DNA from: Candidatus Saccharimonadota bacterium
Lineage (GTDB): Bacteria; Pseudomonadota; Gammaproteobacteria; Enterobacterales; Enterobacteriaceae
Length of the DNA stretch: 32,000 nucleotides
Assembly: GCF_023585745.1 (NCBI RefSeq)
Contig: NZ_CP097762.1
Span: 510,001 to 542,000, forward strand
Reading direction: 5' to 3'
Part shown: one piece after another, positions 205 to 15,052 of the stretch
Position numbering within the stretch: position 1 is the stretch's first letter
How the letters are laid out: each line of letters opens with the position of its first letter
Notes under the pieces: generated by a model
Databases searched by the model: none
What the model was told of the DNA's origin: nothing
What the model saw: the letters and a program-made list of their open reading frames with translations, nothing else
Translations under genes and position numbers: made by a program

Positions 205-1721
205 ATAAAACAACCTTTTATACTATAAATAATTACCGATTATAAATCCTGACGCATATCAATAATTATAAAATTTGCTAAAATTATCAACATTTACTAA
301 ATAACAAAAATTTTTTAAAATTAACCACCTATACAACAAACTAGTAAAATTACACAATAATACTATTATATATAATCCAAAAAAATCTTATATAAAATAA
401 ACACCATACATATATTATATAATATATGTATAAGATCTATACTAAAACACAAACAATCGAAAAATATTATATTATATAATATAAATTAAAATCCAATTAA
501 CATATCGATACAATCAACACAATACACTACTACTAAACTAGGAGCATTCAATATCTTACCAAAATAAGAAATAATATTCTTTAATATTTAACACAAATAA
601 ATATAAATTTTTTAATTCTATATAAAACTATAGTAATATAAATCTTACTTAATATAAAATATTAAAAGACGATATTTAAAATTTAAATATATTTAAACCA
701 AAATAAATAGCGCATTATACATTTATATTATGAAATATATAAGACAATATGAATATATTAAATACTACAAAACTCATATAAATGAACAGAAAAATTTTTG
801 TACAAAATATGTATATAATTTATTTTAATTTTTAATATAAACTAAAAAGCTAATTTTACTATTACATAACGCAATCTATATAAACATATCACAACATTAA
901 ATATATGATTATTTTCTATAAATTACTTGAGGTTTCTTATTAAATATTAAATTACACACAAATCTATTAAACAATTTTATCTATATGAATAGATAACAGT
1001 ATATATAAATTATACTATAATATAGTATATACTAATTGATAATCTATTTAAAATCATCATTGTACTGCTACATACTCCAATAACATTAAAATATCTTTAA
1101 TAACATGGAAAAATTATGTATTTAAATTCTATAAATAATAATACTAATACATATGCTAAATATCAAAAATAAAAAAATTAATATTCATTAATAACACCAT
1201 AATTTAATCTAAAATCTTCAGTAATAACACTACCGTAATATTTATATTATAATAATATTTTCATCTCATATAAATATAATTATAAATATATATAAATAAC
1301 TATAAAAATTAAAATCTATAATTTCAAATATTTACTACACTAAAATTTATATTTATAACATACCGAAAAACTTCACCAACACATTAATAAATTATTATTT
1401 ACATATAAAAAATAATATTTAAACATATATTTAATTTAATTAATTTATTAATTATATACATATAATATAAAGTAACTTTATAAAATTTAACCCTATACAA
1501 ATTTAATTATATTCGATAAAATATTGAACGGAAGGATGATGTTAACAAAGAAATTATGCTGTACATATTAATTTTACTATCATAATTCTAATTAATCTTC
1601 CAAATAAATTAACAATAAACACATTAAATACTTATTTATTAAAATTAAAAAAATATTTTTATTGTTAAAATTTATTGAAATACTAGATACATATAAATTT
1701 ATTATATAAGGCAACAATATT
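205..1721. other. Long A/T-rich non-coding spacer (about 1.5 kb) between yeeX and hisG; probable eroded gene remnant(s)
   Basis: The six-frame track has no ORF of 60 aa or more on either strand here. Stop codons are dense in all frames and G is very rare on the + strand. I found no tRNA-like or structured GC-rich element. Confidence 0.6.
406..431. repeat. 26-bp perfect palindrome (atacatatattatataatatatgtat) in the yeeX-hisG spacer
   Basis: All 13 pairs checked around the centre 418|419. Its 16-nt core tatattatataatata (411..426) recurs exactly at 468..483, inside a second 18-bp palindrome (467..484). Confidence 0.85.
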
Positions 1722-2621
1722 ATGTTGGACAAATCAAGATTAAGAATAGCAATTCAAAAATCAGGAAGATTAAGTAAAGAATCACAACAACTTCTTGAGC
1801 AATGTGGAATTAAAATTAATTTACAGCAGCAACGCCTACTCGCTTTTGCAGAAAATATAGCCATAGATATTATGCGAGTAAGAGATGATGATATACCTGG
1901 TTTAGTAATGGATGGAATAGTAGATTTAGGTATCATAGGAGAAAACGTATTAAAAGAAGCCCTACTGGCAAGAAAATCACAAGGAGATAATCCTTATTAT
2001 ATTATGTTACGCAGATTAGATTTTGGAGACTGTAGACTATCTATGGCGCTGCCTATAGATGAACCATGGGACGGGCCAAAATGTCTACAAGGGAAAAGAA
2101 TTGCTACATCATACCCCCATTTACTAAAACAATATTTAGATAAATTAAATATTAATTTTAAATCTTGTTTACTAAATGGTTCCGTAGAAGTCGCTCCGAG
2201 AGCTGGATTAGCAGATGCAATATGTGATCTTGTATCAACAGGTGCTACGTTAGAAGCTAACGGATTGTATGAAGTAGAAGTAATTTATAGATCCAAAGCA
2301 TGCCTAATTCAAAGAACTGGAAAATTATCCAATGTTAAACAATCTTTAATAAATACAGTAATGCTTCGAATTCAAGGGGTCATTCAAGCAAGAGGGTCAA
2401 AATACATCATGCTACATGCACCTACCGAACAATTAGAGGAAATTATTAGTTTACTACCTGGGGCAGAAAGTCCAACAGTATTACCATTGGCGGGTAATCA
2501 ACATCGTGTAGCTATATATATGGTAAGTAATGAAACATTATTTTGGGAAACTATGGAAAATTTAAAGAATCTTGGTGCTAGTTCTATTTTAGTGTTACCA
2601 ATAGAAAAAATGATGGAATGA
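1722..2621 (+). CDS. hisG: ATP phosphoribosyltransferase (long form), histidine biosynthesis step 1
   Basis: 299 aa, the same length as E. coli HisG and collinear with it (..RLRIA.QKSGRLS..; [21 protein letters not shown]; [33 protein letters not shown]; [11 protein letters not shown] at the C-terminus). First gene of a canonical his operon. Confidence 0.97.
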
Positions 2622-2627
2622 TAAATT

Positions 2628-3959
2628 ATGAATTCTTATGAAGAATTTACATCTATTGATTGGAACAAGTGTTCTTTTTCTGAAAAAAAGATGCTATTAA
2701 CTCGACCAATCTGTAATAAACCAAACAACATAACGCAAAAGGTTGCCAATATACTGCATGAAGTAAATAAAAATGGAGATGATGCTCTACATAAATTTAA
2801 TTTAATTTTTGACAAAATAAAATTAAAACAACTAAAAATTTCATATGAATCTATTGTAAAATCAGGTTACAATATATCCGATGAGATAAAACAAGCTATA
2901 AACACTGCAATATCCCATATCACTCTCTTTCACAAAACACAACATTATTCTGATATAAAACTGGAAATTATACCCGGCGTCAATTGCCAACAAATCACAC
3001 GCCCATTAAATATTGTGGGGCTATATGTTCCGGGAGGTACCGCTCCATTAATTTCAACGGTAATGATGTTAGGAATTCCAGCAAATATTGCTCAATGCAA
3101 ACGTATTATTCTATGTTCACCGCCTATAATACCTGAAGTACTTATATATACAGCAAAGCTCTGCGGAATTACAGAAATTTACCAAATTGGAGGTAGTCAA
3201 GCTATTGCAGCTATGGGTTTTGGAACCAAATCTATTCCGAAAGTCGATAAGATATTTGGTCCAGGTAACATATGGGTTACAGAAGCAAAACGACAAATTA
3301 ACAGCATGCCTAACGGAGCAGAAATCGATATGTTGGCTGGACCTTCCGAAGTATTAATTATTGCAGATGATACAGCTAATCCTATTTTTATAGCAGCAGA
3401 TCTTTTATCACAAGCAGAACACGGCATTGATTCACACGTAATACTTGCAACCCCTTGTATAAAAATTGCAGAACATACAAAAAAAGAATTGTATGAACAA
3501 TTACAAATTTTACCCAGAAATCATATTATTAAACACTCATTAAAAAATAGCCGAATCATTATTACTAATGATTTAATGGAATGCTTTTCAATAAGTAACA
3601 CATATGCTCCGGAGCATTTAATATTACAAATTCAACACGCAGAAAATTATTTACAACATATTGTTAACGCGGGATCAATATTTCTGGGTCACTGGTCACC
3701 AGAAACTGCTGGAGATTATATAAGTGGAACTAATCATGTATTGCCTACATATGGACACGCTACTACCAAATCAGGTTTAGGAGTTATAGATTTCCAAAAA
3801 AGAATCTTGGTACAACAACTTACACAAAAAGGACTCTTAAAATTATCATCAACAATTAAAATATTGACACAAATTGAACAATTACAAGCACATTTATATG
3901 CAGTAACACATCGTACCAATTACATTAAGGAAAACAATGAAGATTCAATCTCTGGCTAG
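2628..3959 (+). CDS. hisD: Histidinol dehydrogenase
   Basis: 443 aa. Carries HisD motifs (VPGGTAPL.ST..M, SQAEHG, YAPEHL, GDY.SGTNHVLPT) and sits immediately after hisG. Confidence 0.97.
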   Translation: MNSYEEFTSIDWNKCSFSEKKMLLTRPICNKPNNITQKVANILHEVNKNGDDALHKFNLIFDKIKLKQLKISYESIVKSGYNISDEIKQAINTAISHITLFHKTQHYSDIKLEIIPGVNCQQITRPLNIVGLYVPGGTAPLISTVMMLGIPANIAQCKRIILCSPPIIPEVLIYTAKLCGITEIYQIGGSQAIAAMGFGTKSIPKVDKIFGPGNIWVTEAKRQINSMPNGAEIDMLAGPSEVLIIADDTANPIFIAADLLSQAEHGIDSHVILATPCIKIAEHTKKELYEQLQILPRNHIIKHSLKNSRIIITNDLMECFSISNTYAPEHLILQIQHAENYLQHIVNAGSIFLGHWSPETAGDYISGTNHVLPTYGHATTKSGLGVIDFQKRILVQQLTQKGLLKLSSTIKILTQIEQLQAHLYAVTHRTNYIKENNEDSISG

Positions 3960-5004
3960 ACATGATATTTTATGTCTAAAACCTTATCAATCTGCCAGGA
4001 AATTAGCTCGATCATCAGCAGGACACTTATGGTTAAACGCTAATGAATTTCCTATTGCTCCTAATTATTACTCACTGAATCAAGAAAAAATCCATAGATA
4101 TCCTATGTGTCAACCACAAGAAATCATTCATAAATATGCTTGTTATGCTGGAATACAATCCAAACAAATTTTAGTATCCAGAGGAGCTGATGAAAGTATT
4201 GAATTATTAATGAAAGTATTTTGTAATCCCACAAAAGATACTATTATATTTTGTCCACCAACATATGGTATGTATAAAACTACCGCTGACATTTTAGGAA
4301 TTAAGTATAAAATTATACCGAAGAAAAAACACTGGCAAATTGATTTAGCACACATTAAATCACAATTAAATAATGTTAAATTAATTTATATTTGTAATCC
4401 AAATAATCCTACAGGTAATTTAATACATTTAAATAGTTTAAAAAAATTACTAAAAATTACTAAAAATAAAGCACTATTAATTATAGACGAAGCATACATT
4501 GACTTTTGTATCAACTCCAGCCTAGCAAGCTGGTTATCAGCATATTCGAATCTAGTAATTTTAAGAACACTATCTAAAGCATTTGCTTTAGCAGGATTAC
4601 GATGTGGTTTTACTTTGGCCAATCCAGAAATTATTAACTTGTTAAAAAAAGTAATTGCTCCTTATCCTATATCTACTCCAGTAATTGATATAGTTACTCA
4701 AGCTTTAACTCCAGAAAGTATAAAATATACACATGAACGAATTAACACAATTAACAAAAACCGAAATATTTTAATTGCAGCATTAAAACAATGTACTTGT
4801 GTTCAAAAAGTATTTATTAGTTATGCAAATTATGTATTAGTAAAATTTAATCCAAAATATAAAGTTTTTAAAAAATTACTGAAAAAAGGAATAATATTAA
4901 GAGATCAAAGTTATCAACCAGGTCTCAATAATTGCGTCCGAATTACTGTGGGTACATATAATGAATGTCACTATCTAATTTCTATTTTAAAAAAAATTAT
5001 ATAA
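3937..5004 (+). CDS. hisC: Histidinol-phosphate aminotransferase
   Basis: 355 aa, collinear with E. coli HisC (LKPYQSARKL, WLNANE.P, VSRGADE.IELL, CPPTYGMY, NPNNPTGN, the PLP-lysine context LRTLSKAFALAGLRCGF, and RITVGT). AAGGA Shine-Dalgarno at 3927..3931. Overlaps the hisD 3' end by 23 nt. Confidence 0.95.
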   Translation: MKIQSLARHDILCLKPYQSARKLARSSAGHLWLNANEFPIAPNYYSLNQEKIHRYPMCQPQEIIHKYACYAGIQSKQILVSRGADESIELLMKVFCNPTKDTIIFCPPTYGMYKTTADILGIKYKIIPKKKHWQIDLAHIKSQLNNVKLIYICNPNNPTGNLIHLNSLKKLLKITKNKALLIIDEAYIDFCINSSLASWLSAYSNLVILRTLSKAFALAGLRCGFTLANPEIINLLKKVIAPYPISTPVIDIVTQALTPESIKYTHERINTINKNRNILIAALKQCTCVQKVFISYANYVLVKFNPKYKVFKKLLKKGIILRDQSYQPGLNNCVRITVGTYNECHYLISILKKII

Positions 5005-5047
5005 CTAACTCCAAACTTATATAAATGAATAACTATCAGGAATACTC

Positions 5048-6127
5048 ATGTGCCATAAAATTTTATTTATAGATAGAGATGGAACATTAATCCATGAACC
5101 TAAAGACAATTTTCAAATCGATTCAGTAGAAAAACTTTCATTAGAACCATATGTTATTCCAGCGCTTATAACACTACGAGATATAGGTTTTAAATTTATT
5201 ATAGTAACCAATCAAAACGGATTAGGTAGTGATAAATTTCCGCAAAAAAAATTCGAAACACCACACAAATTAATGATAGATATCTTTCAATCACAGGGAA
5301 TTACATTTCATCAAGTATTAATTTGCTCTCATTTTCCTGAAGAAAAATGCAATTGTCGTAAACCAAAAACTGGGCTAATAGATCATTGGCTAAACAACAC
5401 ACAATTAAACAAATTTAATAGTTATGTTATAGGAGATCGAGATACTGATATAATTTTAGCGAATAACATGGGAATTTCAGGAATACAATACCATAGAACT
5501 AACTTTGGATGGGAAAAAATTACAAAATACTTGCTCAAACATTATCGCTCATCCTACGTATACCGAGCTACTACAGAGACTAATATAAAAATTAAGATAT
5601 GGCTCGATAAAAATGATAAGAATGATAAAAATCATATTAGCACTGGAATAAATTTTTTTAATCATATGTTACATCAAATCGCAATTCATTCAGGAATATC
5701 TATGAATATCATAGCTCAAGGCGATACCAATATAGATGATCATCATACTATAGAAGATACTGCATTAGTATTAGGAGAAGCCCTAAAAAAAGCATTAAAT
5801 AAAAAACGTGGCATCAAAAGATTTGGGTTTACTTTACCTATGGATGATAGTATTGCACAATGTGTCTTAGATATATCTGGACGATCATATTTTTACTATA
5901 AAGCTCATTATAATTTTCAAAAAATAGGAGATCTCAGCACTGAAATGATAGAACATTTTTTTAGATCCTTAACAACAACAATGGGCTGTACTTTACACTT
6001 AAACGTAAGTGGAACTAATGATCACCATAAAGCAGAAAGTTTATTTAAATCTTTCGGAAAATCATTAGGCCAAGCTATTTCGATCGAACATAACAGTATC
6101 CCTAGCTCTAAAGGAGCGCTATTATGA
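5048..6127 (+). CDS. hisB: Bifunctional histidinol-phosphatase / imidazoleglycerol-phosphate dehydratase
   Basis: 359 aa. N-terminal HAD phosphatase motifs (FIDRDGTLI, VTNQ.G, C.CRKPK.G, GDR.TD). C-terminal IGPD motifs (FF.HML.QIA.H, DDHHT.ED, GDLSTEMIEHFF.S, NDHHK.ES.FK.FG). AGGA SD upstream. The stop overlaps the hisH start as ATGA (6124..6127). Confidence 0.97.
   Translation: MCHKILFIDRDGTLIHEPKDNFQIDSVEKLSLEPYVIPALITLRDIGFKFIIVTNQNGLGSDKFPQKKFETPHKLMIDIFQSQGITFHQVLICSHFPEEKCNCRKPKTGLIDHWLNNTQLNKFNSYVIGDRDTDIILANNMGISGIQYHRTNFGWEKITKYLLKHYRSSYVYRATTETNIKIKIWLDKNDKNDKNHISTGINFFNHMLHQIAIHSGISMNIIAQGDTNIDDHHTIEDTALVLGEALKKALNKKRGIKRFGFTLPMDDSIAQCVLDISGRSYFYYKAHYNFQKIGDLSTEMIEHFFRSLTTTMGCTLHLNVSGTNDHHKAESLFKSFGKSLGQAISIEHNSIPSSKGALL
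5606..5632 (+). repeat. In-frame 9-nt tandem repeat x3 (gataaaaat / gataagaat / gataaaaat) encoding DKN-DKN-DKN in the hisB inter-domain linker
   Basis: Read directly from the sequence. It is in frame with hisB (5606-5048 is divisible by 3). It lies where E. coli HisB has a short non-repetitive linker between the phosphatase and dehydratase domains. Confidence 0.85.
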
Positions 6128-6716
6128 ATATAATAATTATAAATACCAAATGCGCAAATTTATTTTCTGTACATAATGTTCTGTATAAATTAGGATATAA
6201 TGCAGTAATCAGTGATGAAGCCGATATCATATCTAAAGCAGATAAGTTACTTTTACCAGGAGTCGGCACAGTTACAGCAGCAATGCAACAATTAAAAAAA
6301 AAAATTTAGTAAAATTAATACAACAATCTACTCAACCAATATTAGGTATTTGTTTAGGTATGCAACTCTTGGGGATCAACAGTGAAGAAAATAATCATAT
6401 TAACACTTTAAAAATTATTGATATACCTATTAAACATATAAAATCTGGTAATCTACCTCTCCCACATATGGGATGGAATACTATTTCCATACCAAAAAAA
6501 AAACATCCCCTATTTTACGATATAAATAAAAATGATTATTTTTATTTCGCACATAGCTATTATATAGATATATGTCATGTAACAATTTCTCAAACATGGT
6601 ATGGTCACTACTTTAGTGCAGTGATAGAATATAAAAATTTTTTTGGCGTACAGTTTCATCCAGAAAAATCCAGTACACCCGGAGAAAAACTAATAAAAAA
6701 TTTTATGGAGATGTGA
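6124..6716 (+). pseudogene. hisH: Imidazole glycerol phosphate synthase glutaminase subunit HisH, interrupted by a frameshift in an A11 tract; possibly rescued by slippage
   Basis: The track shows two pieces: 6124..6309 (MNIIIINTKCANL..LLPGVGTVTAAMQQLKKK) and 6360..6716 (..PLPHMGWN..FYFAHSY..GVQFHPEKS). Reading the second frame upstream from 6303 gives NLVKLIQQSTQPILGICLGMQLLG, which contains the catalytic Cys codon at 6351..6353. The frame change falls within the A run 6294..6304. A12, or a -1 slip, restores a 197-aa protein collinear with E. coli HisH. Confidence 0.9.
6294..6304 (+). repeat. Uninterrupted poly(A)11 homopolymer at the hisH frameshift site (a slippery A_AAA_AAA context)
   Basis: Counted directly: 7 A at 6294..6300 plus 4 A at 6301..6304, flanked by tt on both sides. 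Confidence 0.95.
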
Positions 6717-6719
6717 TCT

Positions 6720-7460
6720 ATGATAATTCCCGCATTAGACATTATAAACGGTGAAATAGTTAGATTGTATCAAGGTACTTATAGCAAAATTACTAAGTAT
6801 GGTAACCCATTATCATTCCTCAAACAATATATACAACAAGGCGCAAAAATTATACATTTAGTAGATTTAAACGGAGCTAAAGACCCAAAAACACGACAAA
6901 TTTCTTTATTTACTAAATTAATACAAACAATCTCCCCTGCGCTAAAAATACAAGTTGGTGGAGGAATACGTAGCGCAAAAGATATAGAGACTCTTTTAAA
7001 ATCCGGAGCAACACGCATTGTATTAGGTTCTATGTCAGTAACGCAACCTAAAATAGTAAAAAAATGGTTTGAATACTTTGATCCAAATAATTTAGTTCTA
7101 GCAATAGACATACACTGTTATTCTATAAAACATTGCAAAGTATTTATTTATGGTTGGCAAAAAGAAACAAACTTAGAATTTAACCAAATTATGGAAGAGT
7201 ATTATTCTTCAGGTATAAAACACGTGTTATGCACAGATATCGCTAAAGATGGAACTTTACTGGGTAGTAACATATCATTGTATAAATCAATATGTAATTC
7301 TTGGCCAAAAATATCTTTTCAATCCTCCGGAGGAATTAATACTTTAGAAGAAATAAAAACATTACGTAATTCTGGAGTTAAACACATTATTATTGGTCGT
7401 GCATTTTTAGAAAAAAAATTTACTATTTCTGAGGCCATATCATGTTGGCAAAAAGAATAA
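6720..7460 (+). CDS. hisA: ProFAR isomerase (1-(5-phosphoribosyl)-5-[(5-phosphoribosylamino)methylideneamino]imidazole-4-carboxamide isomerase)
   Basis: 246 aa. Begins MIIPALD..G..VRL.QG, followed by (beta/alpha)8 phosphate-binding motifs (VGGGIRS, SSGGI). GGAGA SD upstream. Positioned between hisH and hisF. Confidence 0.95.
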
Positions 7461-8221
7461 TTCCGTGTCTTGATGTAATAGATAATAAAGTAATCAAAGG
7501 TATACAATTCAAAAAACATACAATTATAGGAGATATTGTAGATTTAGCTAATCGTTACGCACAAGAAGGAGCTGATGAACTAGTATTTTATGATATAACT
7601 GCATCACCTCATAAAAAAATAGTAGATAAAAAATGGATTACTCGGGTTGCTAAAGTGATAAACATACCATTTTGTGTTGCAGGAGGTATTACGACTTTAG
7701 AACAAGCCAAACAAATTTTGGAATCTGGAGCAGATAAAATTTCAATTAATTCTCCTGCTTTAATTAATCCAGCTCTTATTAAAGAGCTATCCGAAAATTT
7801 AGGTAAACAATGCGTAGTAATTAGTATAGATATCTGGAAAAATACACAAAAAGATGATTCTTATCAAATCCAATATTATACTGGTGATAGTACTCAAACA
7901 TGCACAACAACATGGGAAATATTGGATTGGATTAAAACAATCCAAGAATATGGAGCCGGAGAAATAGTATTAAATATGATGAACCAAGATGGAATGAAAA
8001 TCGGATATAATTTAGAACTATTAAAATATATTAGACAATATTGTAAAGTGCCACTAATTGCTTCCGGTGGCGCTGGTACTGCTCAACATTTTTTAGAAGC
8101 TTTTCGCGATGCTAATGTAGATGGAGCGCTAGCTGCTTCAGTATTTCACAAAAAAATTATTAATATTAACAAATTAAAATATTTTTTAACACAAAAAGGT
8201 ATACAAATTAGATTATGCTGA
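7442..8221 (+). CDS. hisF: Imidazole glycerol phosphate synthase cyclase subunit
   Basis: 259 aa. The N-terminus [12 protein letters not shown] is identical to E. coli HisF. Also [58 protein letters not shown] and [17 protein letters not shown] at 7431..7434. Overlaps hisA by 19 nt. Confidence 0.97.
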
Positions 8222-8901
8222 TTAACACGCAACTTCATCAAAACAAAATTAATTGGACGAAAACAAATAATAATAAACTTATACCTGCAATAATACAACA
8301 CGCCACATCGGGTGAAGTATTAATGCTAGGTTATATGAATGAAGCCTCAATAATACAAACAGAAAAAACAAGGAAAGTAACATTTTTTTCAAGAAGTAAA
8401 AATAGATTGTGGACTAAAGGCGAACAATCTGGAAATATATTACAATTAATTGATTGGTATTTAGATTGTGATAATGACTCATTATTAATTCTTGCATTAC
8501 CACATGGTCCAACATGTCATTTCCATACTAATAGCTGTTTTCATCCTGCCATAACAACCTTTAGCTTTCTCTATCAATTAGAACACTTTCTATCCTTAAA
8601 AAAAAATATATCCCACCAATTGGGTAATACACAATCATCTTATACAGCTAAATTATACTCTCAAGGCATAAAACGTATTGCACAAAAAGTCGGAGAAGAA
8701 GGCATAGAAACTGCTTTAGCAGCAGTTACACACAATAATAATAAAACAGAAATTATCAACGAAGCAGCAGACTTAATATATCATCTATTAGTATTACTAC
8801 AACATACATCATTAACATTTAGCGTTGTACTACAAGAATTACAAAAAAGACATTATAATAATCAAAAAAAATCTACAACCCATAAATCTCATGATAAATA
8901 G
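8215..8901 (+). CDS. hisI: Bifunctional phosphoribosyl-AMP cyclohydrolase / phosphoribosyl-ATP pyrophosphatase
   Basis: 228 aa. Motifs: [77 protein letters not shown]. Has a short K/N/H-rich C-terminal extension relative to E. coli. Overlaps hisF by 7 nt. Confidence 0.95.
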
Positions 8902-10964: not shown

Positions 10965-12614
10965 ATGACTACTAAAAAAATATTAGTTACTTGCGCTTTA
11001 CCTTATGCTAATGGTTCATTGCATATTGGACATATATTAGAGCATATTCAAGCAGATATTTGGGTTCGTTATCAGCGCATGCAAGGACATCAAGTATATT
11101 TTATTTGTGCAGACGATGCTCATGGTACAGCTATTATGTTAAAAGCCCAAAAACTTAACATAAATCCTGAAAAAATGATTACACAGATACAATTAGAACA
11201 TGAAAGAGATTGTTACGCCTTTAGCATTAGCTATGATAATTATCACTCTACTCATAGTAAAGAAACACATGAATTATTAAACATGATCTATTTTCGATTA
11301 AAAAAAATGGGATTTATTAAGTGTAAATCTGTCTCTCAACTGTATGATTCCGAAAAACAAATGTTTTTGCCTGATCGTTTTGTAAAAGGAACATGCCCAA
11401 AATGTACAGCATCAAAACAATATGGAGATAACTGCGAAATATGTGGTACCATATATACTCCATTAGATTTGATACATCCAAAATCAGTGCTATCCAACAC
11501 AACTCCTATAGTAAAACAATCCAAACACCTATTTTTTGATTTACCAATATTTACAAATATGTTAAAAACATGGATACATTCTAGCGCTTTACAAAAAGAA
11601 GTAATCAACAAAATTGAAGAATGGTTTAAATTAGGATTAAAACAATGGAATATTTCTAGAGATGCTCCATACTTTGGCTTTAAGATACCTAACACTACAG
11701 ACAAATATTTTTATGTTTGGATGGATGCGCCTATAGGATACATGGGTACTTTTAAAAATTTATGTAATAAAAATAATAATATATCTTTTCAGGATTTTTG
11801 GCATCCAGACTCTACAACAGAACTGTATCAGTTTATTGGAAAAGATATTATTTACTTCCATTGTTTATTTTGGCCTGCAATTTTACAAGGTAGTAACTTT
11901 AGAAAACCAACAAATATCATTGTGCATGGACATGTAACTATAAACGGAGCTAAAATATCAAAATCTAAAGGAACAGTAATTCATATACAAACCTACTTGT
12001 CGCATTTACACTCAGATTATCTAAGATACTACTATGCTACAAAACTCTCATCTCGTATTAATGATATAGATTTAAATTTAACTGATTTTACTAACAAAGT
12101 AAATGCAGATATTATCAATAAAATATTAAACTTAGCTTCCAGAAACGCTAAATTTATATCTCAATATAATAATGGACAATTATCAAATAAATTAGAAAAT
12201 CCAGGATTATATGAAAAATTTGCTAATTCTAGACATATGATAGAAGAATTATTTAATAAACGTGATTTTAATGCTGCAATAAAAAAAATTATGAAATTAG
12301 CAGATGAAGCTAATCAATATATTGATAAACTCGCTCCTTGGCACATTGCAAACAAAAACAATCAAAAAGATAAAATCTTATCTATTTATTCTATGGGTAT
12401 TCAACTATTTCGTATTTTAATGATTTATCTGAAACCTGTATTACCCAAATTAGCTAAATATAGTGAAAATTTTCTTAATACTGATTTAACATGGGATAGC
12501 ATTATGACACCTTTATTAAATCATCGTATTAACCAATTTAATACTGTCTTTTATCGAATTAACTCGAAACAAATTTCATGTATTAAAAATGAATCAAAAT
12601 TAAATAATGACTAG
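10965..12614 (+). CDS. metG: Methionine--tRNA ligase, short form lacking the C-terminal tRNA-binding/dimerisation domain
   Basis: 549 aa. [19 protein letters not shown] (HIGH motif), zinc knuckle [31 protein letters not shown] (KMSKS motif), and anticodon-binding region to ..[10 protein letters not shown]. The protein ends about where E. coli MetRS (about 677 aa) begins its C-terminal appended domain. Confidence 0.97.
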
Positions 12615-13817: not shown

Positions 13818-13845
13818 GATCTATTCCTGAAAAACTTAGTGTCTT

Positions 13846-13867
13846 ATATAATATAATTATATTATAT
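13846..13867. repeat. 22-bp perfect A/T palindrome (atataatataattatattatat) 29-50 nt upstream of the folE start, in the folE/rplY divergent spacer
   Basis: Verified base by base around the centre 13856|13857. It carries TATAAT on both strands. Confidence 0.85.
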
Positions 13868-14507
13868 TGAAAAATTATAGGAAACTGAGTGTTATATTAT
13901 TTTATTAATATAAATACATTAACTAATTAATAATAAATTTTACATTGCTCTATTAAATAATATAAAAAGTTCATTTACTATATACAACATAATAAATAAT
14001 ATTTTTTATAAAAAAACTATATTAAGCACAACTTATGCTCTATATAACAAAATTAATACAAATTTTGTATGCCTCTACATACATTAGAAACACAACAAAA
14101 GAGAAGACTCTTATTACTTGTATTTTTCGTGCCCACATGACACACCATATTTTTAATAAAAACTATTTAAATAATTGTATATTAATTATGTTAAATACAA
14201 TATTTCAGTATCATTATAAATTTACAAAATATTTTAAACATTAAGCATATGTATATTAAATTTAATTTCTTTATTTAAAAATACACATAATATTATATAC
14301 ACAAATATACAAATTAAAACCAAGAAATATTATCAAATAATAATATTTACAAACCAAATATTTATAGATATATTATTTAATAAAATTCAATATAATGAAT
14401 AACTAAAATGCGTTTAAACATCAATTATATTAATAATTAATATATCTAAATAATAGATTATTATTAATATTCAACAATTAAAATAAATAAAATCATGGTA
14501 TTAAATA

Positions 14508-14804
14508 ATGTTAACAATTAATGCAATTTCTAGAATTGATATCAAAAAAAGTGCAACCAGAAAATTACGTACACAACACAAATGTCCTGGTGTTATATAC
14601 AGTAAAAAAAATAAAGAAAATTCATCATGTATTTCGCTAAATCAAAATGATTTATTACGACCAGATATTGCTAATATATTACGTAAAAATAATATCCTGC
14701 AATTATCGATTAATAATAAAGCATCTATTACAGTAAGAATTCAAGATATTCAATATCATCCTTTTAAATTAAAAATAATTCATATTGACTTTACTATAAT
14801 CTAA
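14508..14804 (+). CDS. rplY: 50S ribosomal protein L25
   Basis: 98 aa. M.TINA..R....K.A.RKLR...K.P.VIY.. and C-terminal ..QD.Q.HPFK.K..HIDF match E. coli L25 (94 aa). It precedes tRNA-Pro(GGG) as rplY precedes proL in E. coli. Confidence 0.9.
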   Translation: MLTINAISRIDIKKSATRKLRTQHKCPGVIYSKKNKENSSCISLNQNDLLRPDIANILRKNNILQLSINNKASITVRIQDIQYHPFKLKIIHIDFTII

Positions 14805-15052
14805 TATTATATAATTATATTTTCATACATAAATTTTAAAAACAAACTTCTATATGAATATTGTTGCTATTAACATAAATAAACATACATCTTGTATGAT
14901 GATACAATTTTTATGAAAAAATAAAATTTTTCAATTCTATTAAATTAATTTAAATATTAAAATGAGCAATATTGTCTAGTTTTTTAATATTTTATTTCTT
15001 TTGAAATATAGAATATTAAAAATTTCTACTCTAAACTATAATAAATATACTA

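Follow-up and report, generated by a model that had tools for sequence, protein, structure and literature searches.

A one-base deletion in a poly(A) tract of Blochmannia hisH, probably rescued by transcriptional slippage

The window analysed here is a stretch of 32,000 nucleotides of contig NZ_CP097762.1 (positions 510,001 to 542,000 of the forward strand), and this report concerns its hisH gene (6124..6716, plus strand), whose reading frame is broken within an operon for histidine biosynthesis (his operon, 1722..8901, plus strand) that is intact except for this gene. The hisH start overlaps the hisB stop codon (ATGA, 6124..6127). Translation in frame 0 from the ATG at 6124 begins MNIII and runs for 61 codons, to ..AAMQQLKKKI, before a premature TAG at 6307..6309; this 5' segment occupies 6124..6309 on the plus strand. 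The 3' segment (6303..6716, plus strand) lies in the -1 frame and consists of 137 codons (NLVKLIQQ..FMEM) without an internal stop, followed by the stop codon at 6714..6716. Read from 6303 it encodes NLVKLIQQSTQPILGICLGMQ..GVQFHPEKS..FMEM, and the same frame is closed 5' of the tract. The gene has no single uninterrupted reading frame in the DNA, and the sole possible site of the -1 switch is an uninterrupted run of 11 A (A11) at 6294..6304 of the plus strand, the longest homopolymer in the window. The original prediction had placed a single -1 lesion in exactly this run. The tract is one A short of an in-frame A12 (or of the TTG followed by A11 found in Blochmannia floridanus), and the frame would be regained at a length of either A12 or A9, as had been stated. 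Besides this lesion the gene has no other stops or frame-breaking indels, its only other change in length being an in-frame addition of AAA. The codon for the catalytic Cys77 (6351..6353, plus strand), in a GICLGMQ motif, lies in the -1 frame and upstream of the ATG at 6360 with which a second, mechanically called open reading frame (ORF) of 118 amino acids begins, another point on which the earlier reading of the sequence was correct. The peptides encoded in 6303..6359, 5' of that ATG, include NLVK, LIQQSTQPILGICLGMQ.. and LIQQSTQPILGICLGMQLLGINSEENNHINTLK. The other residues of the glutaminase triad, His179 (6657..6659) and Glu181 (6663..6665), are encoded on the plus strand in an FHPE motif.

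When one A was inserted, the gene encoded the 197-amino-acid HisH that had been predicted. The repaired protein matched the profile TIGR01855 with 206.8 bits (cut-off 105.4), its residues 3-197 falling on profile positions 1-198, and it matched HisH of Vibrio cholerae (PDB 4gud) with E = 1.2e-57, the junction being aligned gap-free. Its Cys-His-Glu triad (Cys77, His179, Glu181) is complete. The best match was ADA82635.1, a HisH subunit of 197 amino acids from Candidatus Blochmannia ocreatus (98% identity, four substitutions). HisB and HisA of the window match URJ24959.1 and URJ24960.1, respectively, without a difference; both belong to the 746,321-bp genome of the carpenter-ant symbiont Candidatus Blochmannia (Blochmanniella) ocreatus. 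Because these two accessions are consecutive, hisH has no protein record between them in the B. ocreatus genome, which is how NCBI handles a frameshifted gene; several relatives likewise have no NCBI protein for hisH. The remaining seven genes of the operon (hisG, D, C, B, A, F and IE) all gave full-length profile matches, each exceeding its cut-off, and the description of hisH as an otherwise intact gene among seven intact neighbours was borne out.

The presence of the tract was not in itself taken as evidence. At about 28% G+C, 0.93 runs of at least A11 are expected per 32 kb under a first-order Markov model, and the tract was rejected as a statistically unusual feature for the reason that about one such run is expected in a stretch of this length. 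The non-random element is the 137-codon open frame that encodes the remainder of HisH, for which a chance probability of about 1e-5 was calculated from the base composition of the window. A second tract, of 10 A (A10; 6494..6503, plus strand), lies in frame within IPKKKH. It is longer by one AAA than the corresponding tract in five relatives (A6 to A8), giving 197 rather than 196 amino acids, and is a further slippage-prone site within hisH.

Tract and frame were compared in sister strains, as had been proposed with the original prediction, using hisB-hisH-hisA DNA fetched through HisA homologues. An A11 tract was found at gene positions 171-181 in five genomes (CP046534.1, B. chromaiodes CP003903.1, CP097764.1, CP097763.1 and CP097757.1), and an independent Logan assembly, made from run SRR19335426, has the same tract at the same gene positions. 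All six of these sequences have the -1 switch and a stop codon (TAG or TAA) two codons past the tract, and in all six the downstream frame is open and conserved. Fragments of 61 and 117 amino acids from other Logan and JGI assemblies fall in the same protein clusters. The HisH entry of B. chromaiodes in GenBank has 196 amino acids over a span of 590 nt, though the DNA has A11, which shows that its depositors translated across the frameshift deliberately. This agrees with the policy they state, since genes with single homopolymer indels have been counted as intact in Blochmannia genome papers, owing to slippage correction.

These comparisons bear on whether the tract length in the window is simply miscalled and the true genome carries A12, which we consider highly improbable. 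Homopolymer length errors are common, the continuous 197-amino-acid entry ADA82635.1 from B. ocreatus reads ..QQLKKKNLVK.., and A12 is real in one related genome. However, A11 is present in five other genomes, whose accessions point to several submissions, as well as in the independent Logan assembly, and the same accession batch as the window (CP0977xx) resolves A12 in CP097760.1. Moreover, GenBank translations from the same laboratory are frame-corrected, as seen for B. chromaiodes, so ADA82635.1 is no proof of A12. From the sequences compared, an assembly error in the B. ocreatus genome appears unlikely.

Outgroup sequences were in frame, with TTG followed by A11 in B. floridanus (LKKKNL) and A9-G-AAA in one Logan contig (LKKKKL), from which the lesion is read as a one-base loss from a 12-base stretch of G or A followed by A11. 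In Figure S5 of a 2025 paper the deletion is mapped to gene position 171, consistent with a one-base loss. Inside the A11 group, CP097760.1 was the only genome found to be in frame at the DNA level; its hisH has A12 (1671..1682 of the fetched locus). An apparent in-frame A9 is implied by the protein UOY04301.1 (B. pennsylvanicus, 195 amino acids, ..QLKKNL..), and one in-frame Logan ORF is also among the hisH alleles of the frameshift clade. Tract length flips between lineages at the DNA level, among A11, A12 and apparently A9.

A neighbour-joining tree was built on HisH and HisA with 100 bootstraps. Within the A11-bearing group the window branched off first, with 97/100 bootstraps for the group and 100/100 for the inner six, and CP097760.1 was sister to B. 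chromaiodes (100/100). Nested in this position, the A12 of CP097760.1 is a secondary reversion, and the tree points to one old origin of the A11 lesion followed by this one reversion. On this topology B. ocreatus is the deepest carrier of the frameshift in the present sampling. The deletion would predate the split of B. ocreatus from B. pennsylvanicus, B. chromaiodes and related lineages, and would have been kept since then under purifying selection.

The flips in tract length between lineages are a sign of replication slippage at the site, and with them comes the idea that HisH is supplied from the DNA itself, by a subpopulation of genome copies that replication slippage keeps at A12 or A9. 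A11 is nevertheless the length in all consensus assemblies but one, and Tamas and colleagues, in 2008, reportedly saw length heterogeneity in transcripts rather than in DNA. We give this source of HisH very little weight as the main route, while heterogeneity among genome copies is possible as a minor contributor.

Selection on the repaired hisH was estimated as the ratio of non-synonymous to synonymous divergence (dN/dS, Nei-Gojobori method) for every pair of A11 genomes, the window and the five relatives making six genomes and 15 pairs. The ratio was 0.11-0.25 across the 15 pairs, with similar values in the 56 codons 5' of the tract and in the 135 codons that follow it. In the same pairs hisF had ratios of 0.06-0.20, hisA of 0.17-0.38 and the C-terminal 300 codons of hisB of 0.12-0.21. 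The other five genomes differ from B. ocreatus by a synonymous divergence of about 0.8-1.0. No second hisH lesion was found in the six A11 lineages, and dN/dS was not near 1. Had the gene died in the common ancestor, a ratio near 1 and more lesions would be expected; neither is seen, and hisH is therefore not a decaying pseudogene. The original prediction had likewise argued against long-standing pseudogenization, and it had named further degradation of the orthologues in relatives as an observation that would speak against it; single lesions were found in all six lineages. The tract itself was invariant in 6/6 genomes, and the other three tracts of at least A8 in the his genes of the window were broken or shorter in relatives. 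With conserved Lys and Leu codons in other places as the yardstick, the background probability of A11 retention was about 0.09, and for this reason tract conservation was rejected as strong evidence on its own.

A mechanism by which such a gene could be expressed has been published. According to the summary in the review of Atkins et al. 2016, the frame was corrected in 12-50% of the transcripts that Tamas et al. 2008 studied from a frameshifted gene of histidine biosynthesis in an ant endosymbiont. Slippage of bacterial RNA polymerase already occurs on runs of nine A or T. The gene tested in 2008, for which the review's wording is 'a histidine biosynthetic gene', we take to be hisH of B. pennsylvanicus. 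A 2010-era GenBank series (ADA82609..ADA82635) covers HisH from about ten Blochmannia species, among them B. pennsylvanicus, B. chromaiodes, B. americanus, B. castaneus, B. sayi, B. nearcticus, B. schaefferi and B. ocreatus. HisH of B. pennsylvanicus and of B. chromaiodes share one 90% cluster, and the B. chromaiodes DNA has A11. The series and the shared cluster fit both with hisH as the gene tested in 2008 and with the follow-up study by Wernegreen, Kauppinen & Degnan 2010 in Molecular Biology and Evolution, whose own phrase is 'ancient frameshifts in homopolymeric sequences'. The Blochmannia precedent that the original prediction had invoked in general terms thus appears, from the review's summary and the GenBank series, to be this very gene in this very genus.

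We conclude, with a probability of roughly 0.75, that hisH of B. ocreatus carries an inherited one-base deletion in its Lys-coding poly(A) tract and that a minority of messages, corrected by slippage, supplies the full-length HisH. RNA polymerase would slip on the 11 A:T pairs, adding one A or dropping two. The resulting A12 messages would encode ..QQLKKKNLVK.. and the A9 messages ..QQLKKNLVK.., and translation of either would continue into the part with the catalytic Cys, His and Glu. The number of Lys residues at this point varies from two to four among natural alleles, and the +1 (A12) and -2 (A9) transcripts should therefore both give active enzyme. From what has been published on the orthologue we infer that the frame would be corrected chiefly at transcription, where unprogrammed slippage is the documented route; ribosomes that slip or slide on the A run may contribute as well.

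That the ribosome alone restores the frame, by a -1 slip of tRNA-Lys on A_AAA_AAA or by sliding on transcripts that remain A11, is an unlikely account, though the least so of the rivals considered. Perfect A_AAA_AAA heptamers are present in frame 0 within 6294..6303, the 0-frame stop lies two codons past the tract, and Koutmou et al. 2015 describe E. coli ribosomes that pause at consecutive AAA codons and slide along them. In the same study, however, sliding mostly ended in premature termination rather than productive reframing. The 96 nt downstream of the tract (6305..6400) showed no stimulatory structure, with a minimum free energy of -6.7 kcal/mol against a shuffle mean of -10.8 (z = +1.56) and with 195/200 shuffles folding at least as stably, and no Shine-Dalgarno-like element could be read in the sequence 5' of the A11 tract. 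Although E. coli dnaX (A_AAA_AAG) and hisH of the window share a slippery heptamer of Lys codons, dnaX depends on a Shine-Dalgarno-like element 5' of its heptamer and on a stem-loop 3' of it, and hisH has neither. A programmed -1 ribosomal frameshift of the dnaX type was rejected on the lack of downstream structure. The suggestion of a -1 ribosomal slip made in the original prediction holds as far as the heptamer goes and fails for the stimulators that accompany it in dnaX. The 12-50% of corrected transcripts quoted in the review for the orthologue would also be sufficient without any recoding.

Several points weigh against rescue by transcriptional slippage. Slippage in B. ocreatus is here carried over from slippage in B. 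pennsylvanicus hisH, and the review names the gene tested by Tamas et al. no more closely than in the wording quoted above. Retention of A11 exceeds the background synonymous rate only weakly (P ~0.09) and is at most suggestive. There are in-frame alleles in the clade, and part of the signal of purifying selection could stem from in-frame periods. The in-frame A10 tract of B. ocreatus should cut the yield of correct messages further. Lastly, a 2025 paper (J Evol Biol; PMC12779916) calls hisH a pseudogene in the Blochmanniella lineages BSEQ, BVIC, BCHR and BMOD, suggests that HisF uses free ammonia and cites ammonia-dependent activity of HisF. This last point leads to a different account, in which hisH is dead, HisF by itself produces imidazole glycerol phosphate with free ammonia released via urease, and the open frame is a remnant. 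HisF is indeed intact, and hisH is without an NCBI protein in the genome of the window and in several relatives. We nonetheless hold that account to be quite improbable. The downstream 135 codons have dN/dS values like those of the intact neighbours, sustained at a synonymous divergence of up to ~1; the six lineages have no second lesion and the triad is retained; and the chance of a 137-codon open frame, given above, applies per lineage. In PMC12779916 the words 'slippage' and 'Tamas' have 0 occurrences and hisH is listed as an inactivated pseudogene. Contrary to that listing, hisH was found to be under purifying selection in B. chromaiodes CP003903.1 and the other A11 loci examined. If slippage rescue is the correct reading, B. 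ocreatus probably still provisions histidine.

It is conceivable, if doubtful, that A11 is preferred over A12 as a throttle that holds HisH at a fraction of HisF, which would suit a urease-positive, ammonia-rich symbiont. In favour of such a throttle, A11 persists over a synonymous divergence of ~1 although A12 revertants arise. The A10 tract of B. ocreatus would then tighten the throttle further. The proposal is only partly new, as Wernegreen et al. 2010 already express in their title the idea of selection maintaining frameshifts.

The hisH frameshift is already known: the gene and the genus are the same as in the published case, and HisH of B. ocreatus is already in GenBank. The original prediction had put the gene forward as an open candidate for slippage rescue, and in this respect it was overtaken by publications that preceded it. 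The closest known system is hisH of B. pennsylvanicus and B. chromaiodes (Tamas et al. 2008 in PNAS; Wernegreen, Kauppinen & Degnan 2010), which has the same A11 positions and the same -1 switch. Its 0-frame stop falls at the same codon after the tract, TAG in the window and TAA in B. chromaiodes, and the signature of selection is shared by hisH of the window and the frameshifted hisH of its Blochmannia relatives. Unlike B. pennsylvanicus and B. chromaiodes, B. ocreatus is the deepest branch sampled and has an in-frame A10 with one extra Lys codon. With the class described in 2008 the gene shares a single indel in a homopolymer of at least nine bases, an otherwise intact sequence, a frameshift common to diverged lineages and purifying selection.

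Cell-wall genes of Buchnera aphidicola (e.g. murF) also combine a single poly(A) indel with a conserved gene in an AT-rich, reduced genome, and differ from hisH of the window in being other genes in another symbiont. Protein production was reportedly shown by immunostaining in the Buchnera study. A fraction of the transcripts of these frameshifted genes is frame-corrected, as summarized by Atkins et al. 2016. In dnaX of Thermus thermophilus and in transposases of insertion sequence (IS) elements (A9/T9), realignment of the polymerase likewise yields messages of variable length, only some of which encode the full product. Those cases are programmed for two useful products, whereas in hisH only the corrected product is expected to be functional. 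Mechanistically, hisH adds nothing new. The increments are B. ocreatus as the deepest carrier, the nested A12 revertant, the apparent A9 allele and the second, in-frame A10 tract. On the slippage reading, the gene is a textbook example of one that looks broken in the DNA yet keeps working through polymerase infidelity. When symbiont metabolism is reconstructed, caution is due for automatic pseudogene calls, as made for hisH in this genome and several sister genomes, and for the recent reading of hisH as lost.

The other genes of the his operon are all on the plus strand, in the order hisG (1722..2621), hisD (2628..3959), hisC (3937..5004), hisB (5048..6127), then hisH, hisA (6720..7460), hisF (7442..8221) and hisIE (8215..8901). 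Upstream of hisG, about 1.5 kb (214..1721) separates the operon from a minus-strand gene that apparently starts near 213. This spacer has 19% G+C and no ORF of at least 40 amino acids; it is unusually long and AT-rich, and is possibly a fully eroded gene or a remnant of the his leader region. Elsewhere in the window, the 549-amino-acid product of metG (10965..12614) lacks the C-terminal domain; of the 676 positions of the MetRS profile it matches only 3-544. The 1.2 kb between folE and tRNA-Pro(GGG) (13818..15052) contains an ORF of 69 amino acids without a Pfam match (14035..14244) and rplY (14508..14804), a member of the L25 family.

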